From Escherichia phage ime09: DNA of 64,000 bases. The notes under the pieces are model-generated. The model did no database searches, had not been told where the DNA came from, and was given only the letters and a program-made list of their open reading frames with translations. Every line of letters starts with the position of its first letter. Within the stretch, counting starts at the first letter, position 1. This document shows positions 4,611 to 63,220 of the stretch, in pieces. Location of the stretch: sequence record NC_019503.1, one strand, 5' to 3'. The position numbers were made by a program, and so were the translations under genes.

Positions 4611-4988
4611 TCACTCAAATTTAATGGCTTGAAGGAGACTAATAATTCTCAAGCGACTTCTTTCATCTTTAACTGTAAAAGAAAGAGGGTCACCAGATTT
4701 CATAGTGATAGTGCATTCAAAATCAAAATCTTCAGGAACTTCTTCGAAGAAGTCAAATTCTTCATCATAAATTAGAACATTACTCTGAAAACTGTGAAGA
4801 ATTTTTCCATCATTTCCAGATGCTGTACTAATCATTGTAACATTATGGCCTTTCATATCTTCAACGATAAATTCGCTTGTAGATATTACGGCATTAATAG
4901 AACCATTCCTATAAATAGAAGAAAGCAGATATTTCTTTTCTTCACCTTCGCGAACACGATATTTCTTACCGATTTTAAACATAATCAC
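4611..4988 (-). CDS. hypothetical protein (125 aa)
   Basis: co-directional ORF in packed array; no motif recognised. Confidence 0.5.
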   Translation of the reverse strand: MIMFKIGKKYRVREGEEKKYLLSSIYRNGSINAVISTSEFIVEDMKGHNVTMISTASGNDGKILHSFQSNVLIYDEEFDFFEEVPEDFDFECTITMKSGDPLSFTVKDERSRLRIISLLQAIKFE

Positions 4989-15605: not shown

Positions 15606-15851
15606 TTATTCACCAGTTACTTTCCACAAATCTTCGTTTGCAGTAATCCATTCAGTACGTTGATTTTCTTCATATACTGTAGAATATGCTGCTTTTTCTG
15701 AAGGGAATATCTGATAATGAGCTCCAGAAATTTTGTGAACGTCAGAATAAAGAGGGAAAGCTACAGAAATTTCCTTTCCTTCAATTTTCTTATTTCCATC
15801 TAATTTCTGCTCAAACGTTTTGATATTAACATAACCGCGAGTACTAGCCAT
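15606..15851 (-). CDS. soc: small outer capsid protein Soc
   Basis: 81 aa, MASTRGYVNIKTFEQKLDG... near-identical to remembered T4 Soc. Confidence 0.9.
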   Translation of the reverse strand: MASTRGYVNIKTFEQKLDGNKKIEGKEISVAFPLYSDVHKISGAHYQIFPSEKAAYSTVYEENQRTEWITANEDLWKVTGE

Positions 15852-15867
15852 GTAATTCTCCTTTTAT

Positions 15868-16077
15868 TTAAATTACATGATTATTTATAATAAATTCTTG
15901 CGGAACGTTAAAATACCCAATTTTAGTTAATATAACAACATCACCGTTAATAACTACCGGGGAATAATCGGCTGGAGCATTAAACTTCCAATGGGCTCTA
16001 ATATTATATCCATCAGAACCAAATGCTCGACTAGCCGGTCTACCGGCTTTTTGCCATGCATAAAAATCAAATTTCAT
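15868..16077 (-). CDS. hypothetical protein (69 aa)
   Basis: co-directional ORF. Confidence 0.45.
   Translation of the reverse strand: MKFDFYAWQKAGRPASRAFGSDGYNIRAHWKFNAPADYSPVVINGDVVILTKIGYFNVPQEFIINNHVI
15893..15900 (-). promoter_or_regulatory. late promoter TATAAATA upstream of soc
   Basis: exact TATAAATA on minus strand about 42 nt before soc ATG. Confidence 0.55.
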
Positions 16078-16274
16078 TTTGAATGCTCTATAATTAATTT
16101 TAAGGCTTCTTCATGCACCTTACCTAATTGTATATGTCCAGTTTTAATTGTGCAAGCTTTGTGGAGCTGATTAGATAAGAGCTCACATACGAGCTCCTTG
16201 TCATAATTTTTAAATAGCTGGTCAATACGTTTCTTGTGGGCTTTCTTAAGCTGGCGTTTATTTAAACGAGCCAT
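16074..16274 (-). CDS. hypothetical protein (66 aa)
   Basis: co-directional ORF. Confidence 0.45.
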   Translation of the reverse strand: MARLNKRQLKKAHKKRIDQLFKNYDKELVCELLSNQLHKACTIKTGHIQLGKVHEEALKLIIEHSK

Positions 16275-16792
16275 TAATAACCTCGGTCTTGACGAGCGAA
16301 GTTTTCAGCATTTTTCAGATAATAAAGTTTAAAGATTTCTTCAGCCGTAAGACCGAGACCTTGGAACATGTTCAGAACGAAATGAAGAATATCAATCATT
16401 TCGAATTTAATTTCCAACTGGTCTTGTGGAGACAAATCAGTAATTAAAGTTTCACGGCGTTCACCATGCTGTGACTTCCAAGGTTTCCATACAGCAGATG
16501 CATCTTTTTCACCATTGCTCATACCACCAAGAGAAGTCAATAGTTCGCGGAATTCATCATCAATATAATCTTTCTGATTACGCAGCCAATCAACAACTTC
16601 GCCTGCAGTAGCCAAATCATCAGGATGACGGTTATATTCAGGTTTATCTTTAGCTAAACGAACTTGCAGAGATTTCTGCATATCAAGCATAACTTGCAGT
16701 GGGTCTTTTTCGTCACCGAGAATATCCCAGTATTCATTTTGAGCTTTATCAGCGCCTTCGATCAATTGCGAACATTCATTAAAGTAAGCCAT
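16274..16792 (-). CDS. 56: dCTPase/dUTPase gp56
   Basis: track ORF 16274..16885; true start at internal Met (MAYFNECSQLIEG...) with AAGGA RBS; matches T4 gp56. Confidence 0.88.
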   Translation of the reverse strand: MAYFNECSQLIEGADKAQNEYWDILGDEKDPLQVMLDMQKSLQVRLAKDKPEYNRHPDDLATAGEVVDWLRNQKDYIDDEFRELLTSLGGMSNGEKDASAVWKPWKSQHGERRETLITDLSPQDQLEIKFEMIDILHFVLNMFQGLGLTAEEIFKLYYLKNAENFARQDRGY

Positions 16793-16863
16793 TATTTTTC
16801 CTTTCAATTCATGGGTTAGTAGATTAATTATACAATAAATATATAAAGCAATAAGGAGGACAT

Positions 16864-17064
16864 ATGGTACAAAAATTAATGGCACTTGTTAATGCCATAA
16901 AAGGTAATAAAAAACGTATAGCTTTTACTATTTCTGCTATGGTAGGAATTTTACTCTGGAATTTTGTTTTATCGCCAATTGCTATTGCTCATGGCGTTAA
17001 TATTCCAGTAATTACTCTTGATACATTCGTAGATTTAGCATTTGCTTTAGTTGGGTTAATTTAA
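16864..17064 (+). CDS. candidate small membrane protein, only plus-strand gene candidate
   Basis: 66 aa, two hydrophobic segments; strong AAGGAGG 4-5 nt before ATG; sits in the 56-61 gap. Confidence 0.35.
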   Translation: MVQKLMALVNAIKGNKKRIAFTISAMVGILLWNFVLSPIAIAHGVNIPVITLDTFVDLAFALVGLI

Positions 17065-18089
17065 ATCTTAGCATATTTAGATAGCCGCATTTTAGCCATC
17101 AACCCTTGGGCAATATTATTTTTCATATATTCCATAATTTGTTCAGGGGTTGCACCTTCCTTTCTAATCATATCATTAACATCTTTTGATTTCCAGGGGG
17201 ATTTATCCCAAAACATAACCCTTTCTCCTGCATCAACCAATTTAGTCATTCGTTTAATAGTGTCAGGATGACGAGGTTCATTATCTAAAACCCATACACG
17301 TCTATCTTTAAATGGAACAATTTCTAGGTCTAATTGACCACCTGTAATAGCTATACCATTTTCAATAAAAAGTGAATCTATAGGTCCTTCTAGAACATAT
17401 ACATCACCATCTTTAACTCGTTCAACGCCATAGATTTTTGTTGCTTCAGGATAAGCTTTGATGGTGATATATTTTTGAGGAGCATCTTTCTTTAATGCAC
17501 GTCCTTGAAAAGACTCAGCTTTTCCATTAGCATTATAAATTGGAATAACAAGACGAGGCTCAGGTATTTCCTTTTTGTATGTTCCTGGTGCTATGCTATT
17601 AACTAATTTAGGCCATTCGGTTGTAAACCAAAGATATTTCCATTTATCCTTTGGAATACAACGAGCTTTTACATATTTTATAATTGGATGGTCTTCCGTC
17701 AGTTTATCTAATCTAACGCATGACGGAAGAGATTTAATTATTTTCTTCTCATGTTGTTTAGGAAGTTCTTTAGGTTTTTCTACTGGACGACTTTTACCTT
17801 TTTCTTTTCTTATTTCAAAGATATACTCACGATATAAATCGGGTTCAAACTCCTTTAAATATATTCCGATTGGTGCATGATAGTTACAGTTATAACAATG
17901 AATATTTCCTTCATTATTATCACCATAATACCATCCACGGGCTTTATTTTGGTCGGTTTTTGAATCTCCACAAACAGGGCATCTAAACCGTAATTTAAAA
18001 GTTGAACTATTATTTACTTGTGCGAATTTAGGTAAATGAGCTAATGCACGATATGCAAACTCATTATCAATCCAAGGTATTGATGACAT
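17061..18089 (-). CDS. 61: DNA primase gp61
   Basis: 342 aa; zinc ribbon CPVCGDS...CYNC; matches T4 gp61. Confidence 0.93.
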   Translation of the reverse strand: MSSIPWIDNEFAYRALAHLPKFAQVNNSSTFKLRFRCPVCGDSKTDQNKARGWYYGDNNEGNIHCYNCNYHAPIGIYLKEFEPDLYREYIFEIRKEKGKSRPVEKPKELPKQHEKKIIKSLPSCVRLDKLTEDHPIIKYVKARCIPKDKWKYLWFTTEWPKLVNSIAPGTYKKEIPEPRLVIPIYNANGKAESFQGRALKKDAPQKYITIKAYPEATKIYGVERVKDGDVYVLEGPIDSLFIENGIAITGGQLDLEIVPFKDRRVWVLDNEPRHPDTIKRMTKLVDAGERVMFWDKSPWKSKDVNDMIRKEGATPEQIMEYMKNNIAQGLMAKMRLSKYAKI

Positions 18090-18091
18090 TT

Positions 18092-18256
18092 TTACTCTTC
18101 TTTTTCTTTAGATTCCTCTTTTTTCTTTTTAGGAATCTGTTCAGGACCTTTATTTACTACAGCGCCTGATGTTGTTCCAGTGGAGATATTTTCAGGATTA
18201 CCACCCGAATCTCCAGCTACCATATCTTCTTTGATAAATTCTTTATATGTTTTCAT
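18092..18256 (-). CDS. small protein with capsid-targeting-like N-terminus MKTYKEFIKE (54 aa)
   Basis: manually translated ORF directly upstream of primase; Lys/Glu-rich tail. Confidence 0.4.
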   Translation of the reverse strand: MKTYKEFIKEDMVAGDSGGNPENISTGTTSGAVVNKGPEQIPKKKKEESKEKEE

Positions 18257-18257
18257 A

Positions 18258-18614
18258 TTAACCTCTATTCATAAAAGCATTAAAAATTTGGTCATCAATC
18301 GATGGAATAGCAACTTTTTCTGCATCATTTAGCAAATCATTAATTTCATCAGATAGCATAACACATGTACCTTTATTTCCTGTAATTGTTACTGCGCAAT
18401 TACGAACGTTTTCTTTATCAAATTTTAGGTTAATATTTTCGTAGTGAAAATCCTTTAATGCCGAATATATTTTTAAAATGAAATTATCTTTTACTACAAT
18501 AAACCCAACCTCGCTATTAAAACGTGGTTCATGGAAGCTGTAATAAATCTTTTCATCTATGAAATCGTATGAAATTTTTTCCATTTTTAAATATGAAAAT
18601 TCAGAACTATACAT
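18258..18614 (-). CDS. hypothetical protein (118 aa)
   Basis: co-directional ORF in 61-41 interval. Confidence 0.5.
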   Translation of the reverse strand: MYSSEFSYLKMEKISYDFIDEKIYYSFHEPRFNSEVGFIVVKDNFILKIYSALKDFHYENINLKFDKENVRNCAVTITGNKGTCVMLSDEINDLLNDAEKVAIPSIDDQIFNAFMNRG

Positions 18615-18626
18615 ACTAACCTCTAA

Positions 18627-18920
18627 TTATTCACCTACCACTTCAGCGATGATATTTTTATTATTGAAGTTTTTATCGCAATACAGAACGTAATTATACT
18701 GCATTACACCACCAGACTTAAGTTGTTTTTGCACTTCAGCTTTCATTTCAGGACGATCACGCTCAACGATATTCATAATATCCGCTTCAATTTGAATTTC
18801 AACTTCAGTCTGATCTGCAGTCATAGACCATTCACACAAATCTTTGTCATAACCCGCCATAGCAGGCTGAGCAGCGCAAGAAGATAAAGCAAAAATTGCA
18901 GCAAAGATAAATTTTTTCAT
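18627..18920 (-). CDS. sp: Spackle-like periplasmic protein
   Basis: 97 aa with cleavable signal peptide; size and position match T4 sp (61.3). Confidence 0.65.
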   Translation of the reverse strand: MKKFIFAAIFALSSCAAQPAMAGYDKDLCEWSMTADQTEVEIQIEADIMNIVERDRPEMKAEVQKQLKSGGVMQYNYVLYCDKNFNNKNIIAEVVGE

Positions 18921-18946
18921 GATAATCTCCTCAGTAGTTTATGTTT

Positions 18947-18976
18947 ATAGTATCTCAATTTTCAACAAAAGTAAAC
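18947..18976 (-). promoter_or_regulatory. early promoter GTTTAC-N18-TACTAT
   Basis: upstream of sp-like gene. Confidence 0.5.
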
Positions 18977-43312: not shown

Positions 43313-43337
43313 CCCTTACCTTGAATAGATAAGGGTA
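43313..43337 (-). promoter_or_regulatory. RBS-sequestering hairpin before gene 49
   Basis: 7-bp stem accctta/taagggt; 3' arm carries the AAGGG Shine-Dalgarno; then UUUUUAUU and AUG. Confidence 0.5.
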
Positions 43338-43353
43338 TTTATTATTTCAAGTA

Positions 43354-56454: not shown

Positions 56455-56462
56455 TATTTATA
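56455..56462 (-). promoter_or_regulatory. late promoter TATAAATA upstream of rI.1-rI
   Basis: exact TATAAATA on minus strand between tk and rI.1. Confidence 0.5.
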
Positions 56463-60071: not shown

Positions 60072-60433
60072 TACAAGCTCTCAGTAAAGGTACGAGCGAT
60101 AACGTCGCGCTGCTGTTCCGGAGTCAGAGAGTTAAAGCGAACTGCATAACCGGATACACGGATGGTCAGCTGCGGATATTTTTCCGGATGCTTAACTGCA
60201 TCTTCCAGAGTTTCACGACGCAGAACGTTAACGTTCAGGTGTTGACCACCTTCAATTTTAACCGCAGGTTGTGGTTCAATTTCAATTTCACGGGTATGCA
60301 AACCGTAGAAAATTTCTGGGTCTACAAAAGAGTCCTCTTTAAAAGTTTTAGAGACAATAATTCGTGCTTGAATACCATCTTCAAAATAAATAGTACCTTT
60401 ATGTGTGCCTTCAAGAATTTGATATGCTTTCAT
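60071..60433 (-). CDS. autonomous glycyl radical cofactor, GrcA/YfiD-like
   Basis: 120 aa; C-terminal about 60 aa match E. coli GrcA including RVSGYAV glycyl radical motif. Confidence 0.85.

Positions 60434-62417: not shown

Positions 62418-63220
<803 letters not shown>

Follow-up and report, generated by a model that had tools for sequence, protein, structure and literature searches.

The locus considered here raises a simple question: what stands between genes 56 and 61 in a T4-type phage that carries no methyltransferase gene at this place, where dam would be expected? The window analysed is the whole stretch of 64,000 nucleotides from Escherichia phage ime09 (NC_019503.1), read on one strand. 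The sequence-only reading had described an interval of 268 bp without a methyltransferase ORF, holding instead a 66-aa plus-strand ORF with a near-perfect ribosome-binding site, which encodes a hydrophobic helical peptide and converges with the primase gene. This observation is confirmed in every particular; the interpretation attached to it is half right. Gene 56 (dCTPase/dUTPase, assigned from the ORF list and from the dCTPase annotation in relatives) lies on the minus strand at 16274..16792, with its true start at the ATG at 16792. On its right, gene 61 (DNA primase, assigned from the sequence and the ORF list) occupies 17061..18089 on the same strand, which leaves exactly 268 bp (16793..17060). 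The plus-strand ORF (16864..17064), known as dam.1, RB32ORF030w or PHROG 2024, encodes a predicted small membrane protein of 66 aa. Its Shine-Dalgarno sequence, AAGGAGG, can be read at 16853..16859, 4 nt ahead of the ATG, and its stop codon overlaps that of the convergent gene 61 by 4 nt (TTAA, 17061-17064). Over 1.5 kb, the region around the ORF is 97-98.6% identical to many Tequatrovirus (T4-type) phages, among them Shigella phage SH-1, KFS-EC3 and HY01. Building on the ORF itself, its conservation, the purifying selection, the synteny and the motif positions, we propose, with a probability of about 0.75, that it is a genuine gene, orthologous to T4 dam.1, and that it most likely encodes a late-expressed small inner-membrane protein, of which the late transcription, the topology and the function are what we infer.

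The ORF had also been singled out as the one candidate gene on the opposite strand, and the comparison with the other ORFs agrees. When all plus-strand ORFs of 40 aa or more in the 64-kb window are compared, dam.1 has the lowest overlap with minus-strand ORFs (13%) and is the sole one to lie mostly (87%) outside them. It is also the only listed plus-strand ORF with a recognisable Shine-Dalgarno sequence within 20 nt of its start. The RefSeq record of HY01 has 87 annotated features in its first 50 kb, and all 87 are on the minus strand. Within this leftward block of more than 60 kb, dam.1 is the sole rightward gene candidate.

Concerning dam, the T4 gene order given in the sequence-only reading is correct: on the minus strand of NC_000866, gene 56 lies at 16270-16785, dam at 16846-17625 and gene 61 at 17935-18963. 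The lack of a methyltransferase ORF in the interval studied here was upheld too. T4 Dam compared with the whole 64-kb window by tblastn gave nothing better than E = 0.65, and the motif search that had been suggested for Dam found no DPPY-type motif in a real ORF of the window ([DN]PP[YFW] does not occur in any ORF longer than 17 aa within the 64 kb); on these two grounds a Dam methyltransferase identity was ruled out for this locus. What does not stand is the idea that the plus-strand ORF replaces dam. T4 has dam and the same ORF, which is located at 17738..17938 (+) in the 309-bp gap between dam and gene 61 (NC_000866 17626-17934), where it is unannotated. The gene order can be written as 56 - variable slot - dam.1 - 61, with a slot that contains dam in T4, a homing endonuclease in fPS-2, dam and a further 186-aa ORF in Lutter, and that is empty here (16793-16863). 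The slot of T2 is apparently like that of Lutter, since the match is split likewise and an extra hypothetical protein is listed. The dam-less arrangement is the commoner state in the genus, because a T4-type Dam was found at 90% identity or more in 182 phage records and the ORF at 80% identity or more in about 500. In agreement with the 182 Dam records, the dam-proximal part of the T4 query was covered in 180 of 502 records. The absence of dam is in this respect ordinary, dam being an accessory gene of the variable slot between 56 and dam.1. Judging from the relatives, dam is probably missing from the whole phage and not just from the 64-kb window.

The gene itself is already known: hundreds of phage genomes list it as a hypothetical protein. 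The T4T record (HM137666, T4Tp032) names it dam.1 and the vB_SsoM_113 record RB32ORF030w, while most other records use "hypothetical protein" and a few "putative membrane protein". The labels "putative head morphogenesis protein" and "DNA packaging ATPase", present in some records, were rejected as unsupported because neither Pfam nor NCBIfam profiles match the family and almost every other record says hypothetical. The ORF is annotated neither in the dam-61 gap of T4 RefSeq nor in the corresponding gap of HY01 (NC_027349 16593-16860). T4 dam.1 is the same gene, with 95.5% protein identity; it lies at the same place on the same strand, and its stop codon likewise overlaps that of gene 61 by 4 nt. 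It differs in its upstream neighbour, which is dam in T4 and gene 56 here. Copies that are 100% identical to the present one occur in Shigella phages SH-2 and ESh34. Since the T4 reference annotation does not include dam.1, screens that start from the annotation would have missed it too, and a gene conserved under purifying selection in at least six T4-type genera may have been passed over in studies that rely on the genes listed in NC_000866. The result mainly tidies the record, with an accessory dam and a conserved hypothetical gene that is unlisted in the T4 RefSeq entry.

Profile searches place the protein in a narrow family. PHROG 2024 (category: unknown function) matches with E = 5.4e-31, residues 2-66 aligning with positions 1-65 of the 65-column profile. 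Pfam and NCBIfam profiles gave no match for dam.1, and the PDB sequence search and the fold searches against BFVD and PDB returned no informative match, just family members and noise, so that the functional reading has no homology basis. A match to NqrE (E = 0.04) was discarded as composition-level only. When 1.84 billion representative proteins were searched exhaustively with a profile, only 4 clusters came out at E < 1e-10; a joint-profile search of 5.8 billion proteins yielded 115 clusters, all from T4-like phages of enterobacteria, and none of the 115 bears a credible functional name. As far as these collections reach, the family is confined to T-even-type phages of enterobacteria. The family HMM detected no dam.1 paralogue among the 929 ORFs of the window, imm and rI included. 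No paper naming dam.1 or RB32ORF030w was found in the literature, and Rfam and tRNA scans of the window found nothing.

Conservation of the ORF in relatives, which the sequence-only reading had put forward as a check, is broad. The search by tblastn with dam.1 matched 691 phage records; coverage reaches at least 80% in 685, and about 190 matches, including Mosigvirus and Gaprivervirus, are at less than 60% identity. The search for related loci with a 5-sequence alignment gave 10 loci, and the ORF is intact in each of the 16 loci that were extracted (16/16). The dN/dS ratio (Nei-Gojobori, 12 distinct loci) is 0.1-0.4; between genera, synonymous sites are saturated and dam.1 proteins are still 48-54% identical. 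Variable alignment columns number 47, 26 and 61 at codon positions 1, 2 and 3, respectively. The +0 frame alone is uninterrupted throughout the six lineages tested; stops number 1-9 in each of the other five. The GGAG(G) core of the ribosome-binding site and the ATG are retained in the lineages compared, and the arrangement 56 (-), ORF (+), 61 (-) is preserved across every one of them. The substitution pattern indicates that dam.1 is under purifying selection, and the earlier view of the ORF as a credible gene is borne out by both this selection and the conservation. The 4-nt stop overlap with gene 61 recurs in ST0, in the primase-proximal ORF of VR25 and in Marfa, WG01 and CIP9; elsewhere the junction is a 9-nt gap (lineage L020) or a 14-nt overlap (L022). 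Because the junction varies in this way, the constraint is on the ORF and not on the 3' end of the primase gene.

The minus strand carries signals of its own in this interval. Comparison of the sequence with the consensus predicts a MotA-dependent middle promoter of gene 56 at 16827..16853 (-), composed of a MotA box TATTGCTTTA (16853..16844), an 11-nt spacer and a -10 element TATAAT (16832..16827). The MotA consensus is (a/t)(a/t)(a/t)TGCTTtA, at 12 +/- 1 bp from the -10 element (Hinton review, PMC2988021). The fPS-2 record has a predicted middle promoter annotated at the equivalent place. Further along, within codons 6-12 of dam.1, a terminator-like hairpin was recognised at 16869..16898 (-) from its fold and from the terminator annotation in fPS-2. 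It consists of a stem (16898..16879) of 8 bp, one G.U pair included, followed by TAATTTTTGT, and is located some 165 nt beyond the stop codon of gene 61. This hairpin is present in Tequatrovirus and folds with -8.4 kcal/mol as minus-strand RNA, with its G.U pair, versus -6.1 kcal/mol as plus-strand RNA, in which a C.A mismatch stands instead. Transcripts of gene 61 could plausibly end at this hairpin, in which case the dam.1 coding sequence would double as the putative terminator of the opposite strand.

Such signals could in principle account for the whole conservation of the region, as part of the 3' UTR or terminator of gene 61 or as the promoter of 56 or dam, and the ORF would then be fortuitous. 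The greater stability of the hairpin on the minus strand would fit, as would the overlap of a consensus MotA-box promoter with the region upstream of the ORF, the decision of the fPS-2 annotators to mark both terminator and middle promoter, and the two RefSeq records (T4 and HY01) that leave the ORF unannotated. We nevertheless hold this explanation to be extremely unlikely. The regulatory signals span just about 60 of 270 bp, and no equivalent strong hairpin is evident in the folds of ST0 or VR25, yet the ORF persists in Mosigvirus and Gaprivervirus. Moreover, substitutions are more frequent at the third than at the first and at the first than at the second codon position, dN/dS is low with saturated dS, the frame is open in every lineage as opposed to the other five, and the same protein motifs recur at 20-50% identity in at least six genera. 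These are features of a protein-coding gene, which brings us to how dam.1 could be expressed.

A late-promoter-like octamer, AATAAATA, is located at 16834..16841 (+), 22 nt ahead of the ATG; it is the variant of TATAAATA with A at -13. The T4 late promoter is TATAAATA, which is perfect in 32 of 50 listed promoters, A at -13 is the commonest natural variant (9 of 50) and late transcripts run in either direction (Geiduschek and Kassavetis, PMC2988020). As at T4 late genes, where it stands at about -10, an octamer of the TATAAATA type is found here shortly upstream of the ORF, in the form of AATAAATA at 16834-16841. An octamer NATAAATA lies 16-22 nt ahead of the ATG in five lineages whose upstream regions are otherwise unalignable. 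The equivalents are GATAAATA in T4 and Lutter (annotated as a promoter in the Lutter record), AATAAATA in ST0, WG01 and L022, CATAAATA in VR25 and the perfect TATAAATA in Marfa and CIP9; the L020 lineage carries only TATTAATA at this position. T4 dam.1 differs from the present gene in this octamer, whose first base is not T here, is G in T4 and is C in VR25.

The motif is depleted in the window, with 3 occurrences of AATAAATA for 15.2 expected, 5 of TATAAATA for 10 expected and, overall, 8 of [TA]ATAAATA for about 25 expected. Six of these eight octamers lie 15-35 nt upstream of a same-strand ATG, namely those of soc, gene 49, e (two octamers), the ORF preceding rI, and dam.1; an octamer so placed is for this reason a good predictor of a late gene. 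The minus-strand octamers, all 15-35 nt upstream of an ATG, serve as positive controls for the promoter argument: one before soc (15882-15889), one before gene 49 (endonuclease VII, 43336-43343), one before the ORF just upstream of rI (56455-56462) and two in tandem before the lysozyme gene e (63198-63218). The two further plus-strand octamers, TATAAATA at 4910-4917 and AATAAATA at 60385-60392, are each antisense inside a minus-strand gene and have neither an ORF nor a ribosome-binding site downstream; late antisense RNA might start at them, or they may be chance survivors. Like soc, gene 49 and e, which are late genes in the early region, dam.1 is preceded at 15-35 nt from its ATG by an octamer that is depleted in the surrounding region. 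These three genes share the minus strand with their neighbours, whereas dam.1 is on the opposite strand and converges with an essential replication gene. Given the position and the conservation of the octamer, late transcription of dam.1 is likely. A scan of the 56-61 interval for sigma-70 promoters gave hits no more numerous than in shuffled sequence.

The plus-strand octamer at 16834-16841 falls wholly inside the spacer of the opposite-strand middle promoter, so that the two predicted promoters, middle and late, share the same 27 bp in opposite directions. The locus would thus show, within a small space, a middle and a late promoter that overlap and point in opposite directions. For the same reason, conservation of the octamer in dam-less Tequatrovirus could partly stem from the middle promoter. 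In ST0, however, the octamer is upstream of a MotA-like box and not in its spacer, and its distance to the dam.1 ATG is unchanged, which ties the octamer to the ORF.

Downstream of dam.1, no convincing plus-strand intrinsic terminator was detected within 4 kb, so that a late transcript would run antisense into gene 61. This could mean that the main function is exerted at the RNA level, late antisense transcription shutting off gene 61 or colliding with early and middle transcription, and the peptide being secondary. Apart from the missing terminator, the convergent layout with stop codons that overlap in most lineages is consistent with such a role, and most of the dam.1 mRNA would find its full complement in a gene 61 transcript that stops at the hairpin. 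A primary role of this kind is, in our view, very unlikely: it leaves the purifying selection on amino acids, the conserved ribosome-binding site and the invariant residues unexplained, and the protein is conserved across lineages that differ in its junction with gene 61. A version that combines both levels can also be conceived, in which dam.1 is an overlooked late envelope component of T-even phages whose convergent transcript also silences 61. The shared 27 bp would then act as a compact temporal switch, the MotA middle promoter firing leftwards and the gp55 late promoter rightwards, and the envelope process concerned would be lysis timing, lysis inhibition, superinfection or membrane integrity; we consider this extended version unlikely.

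Homologues of a second type, represented by VR25_032, extend the family beyond the dam.1 type. The two subfamilies are homologous according to hhalign (probability 96.7%, E = 3.6e-10). They share their length (61-69 aa), the convergent position, the late-promoter octamer and a core motif, LWN[FL]xxxPxAxxxGxxxPxVTx[DE]; they differ in that identity is just 17-30% and in that the N-terminal helix and the C-terminal tail of the VR25_032 type are unlike those of the dam.1 type. In Dhakavirus (JS98, WG01), Marfavirus, Kanagawavirus (CIP9, PEi26) and Klebsiella T4-like phages, the ORF that adjoins the primase gene is of the VR25_032 type; those examined (VR25, Marfa, WG01 and CIP9) have it on the plus strand, with stop codons that overlap by 4 nt. 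Both subfamilies stand in tandem on the plus strand of Gaprivervirus VR25 (2495-2692 and 2701-2901 of the extracted locus, L004). The second ORF begins 8 nt past the first and has no octamer of its own, which suggests that the two are co-transcribed. As both types co-exist in this phage, they may have diverged in function.

The predicted product of dam.1 is indeed hydrophobic and helical, as had been noticed from the letters. It has a GRAVY of 1.25 and a net charge of +5 over its N-terminal 18 residues. AlphaFold2 with a 29-sequence alignment (pLDDT 80.7) gives helices at residues 2-12, 16-42 and 52-63 with a loop at 43-51, and the same layout is obtained with a 6-sequence alignment (pLDDT 72.9). 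Among 29 diverse family members, W32, N33 and P38 are invariant, A40, G44, P48 and G64 almost invariant, and 26 members have D or E at position 53. From this model we propose a topology in which a basic amphipathic N-terminal helix would be cytoplasmic by the positive-inside rule and would be followed by a single long transmembrane helix (about residues 19-42) containing W32-N33...P38, with W32-N33 near its outer end. A short turn (H/Q/N-G...P48) would come next, and a short acidic-hydrophobic C-terminal helix (D53, D57) would either re-enter the membrane or rest on its periplasmic face. Since the conserved residues are polar and helix-breaking, a specific membrane interaction, by self-assembly or with a partner protein, is favoured over mere hydrophobicity.

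The same N-terminal features can be read in another way, with the first 42 residues as a long cleavable signal peptide or an RI-like signal-anchor-release domain and the periplasmic-side 24-residue HGVNIPVITLDTFVDLAFALVGLI as the active product. The stretch P38-I-A-I-A / H-G agrees with the signal peptidase -3/-1 rule, and this pattern is broadly conserved, being mostly small-x-small in subfamily a (L-V-A in the Mosigvirus type) and V/I-A-A / S/T in subfamily b. The basic n-region, the hydrophobic core, the helix-breaking P38 and the small residues at -3 and -1 (A-I-A / H-G) would fit a signal sequence, and the helix end NFVLSPIAIAH resembles the end of the RI secretion signal, LAFALSPPIEAN, in the same window. 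A cleaved or released form of dam.1 is accordingly possible on sequence grounds. A throw-away signal peptide is argued against by the invariant residues that fall inside this segment: the most conserved residues of the family (L31, W32, N33 and P38) belong to the putative signal, which would be unusual if it were discarded. In addition, the hydrophobic core, which holds the invariant W-N, spans about 19-24 residues and is long for a signal peptidase I substrate, and the 24 residues that remain, with one short AlphaFold2 helix, do not make up a periplasmic functional domain. We therefore regard an active periplasmic fragment as quite unlikely and retain the membrane-anchored protein as our reading. 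As regards RI itself, the antiholin is encoded here from about 56201 downwards (-) and reads MALKATALFAMLGLAFALSPPIEAN...; the likeness of its secretion-signal end to NFVLSPIAIAH of dam.1 is probably a generic feature of signal sequences.

Taken as an inner-membrane protein, dam.1 would be produced by rightward late transcription by gp55-RNA polymerase from AATAAATA at 16834-16841, followed by translation from the strong AAGGAGG site, and the 66-aa product would make a specific contact within the membrane and in this way affect an envelope process. Our working guess is an accessory late-phase envelope function, such as lysis timing, lysis inhibition or membrane integrity; assignment to lysis control in particular is doubtful at best. 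Several known proteins invite comparison. Imm and Ac are small T4 membrane proteins with an action expected at the inner membrane, and they are, like the RI signal-anchor-release domain, class II holins and dam.1, small with one or two hydrophobic helices. Imm and RI show no sequence relationship with dam.1 (family HMM against the window ORFs), and RI has a periplasmic globular domain that dam.1 lacks.

The possibility of a holin or pinholin deserves separate attention, since one family member carries a "Holin" label in UniRef/BFVD and dam.1 combines small size and hydrophobicity with a putative late promoter. The C-terminal tail of holins is cytoplasmic and charged, and T4-type phages use gpT, a holin unrelated to dam.1. 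The C-terminus of dam.1 (...DLAFALVGLI) is in contrast hydrophobic and has no basic residue, its basic cluster being N-terminal. The lysozyme gene e (about 63.2 kb) is not adjacent but about 46 kb distant, neither Pfam, holin families included, nor NCBIfam gave a match, and the UniRef label appears automatic. Holin identity was rejected on the basis of the C-terminal tail and of the missing linkage to lysis genes, and we judge it highly improbable.

Finally, two differences from T4 were observed on either side of the locus. Between soc and gene 56, T4 has the homing endonuclease gene segF (15606-16280, corresponding to 2107-2781 of the extracted locus L001); at this place the window contains two small minus-strand ORFs of 69 and 66 aa (15868-16274). 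In vB_SsoM_113, the one next to gene 56 bears the name soc.2, and the other is listed as a hypothetical protein with no gene name. On the far side of the primase gene, T4 gene 61.2 (627 bp) is replaced by a minus-strand ORF of 118 aa at 18258-18614, named RB32ORF033c in vB_SsoM_113, which is shorter than and different from T4 61.2.
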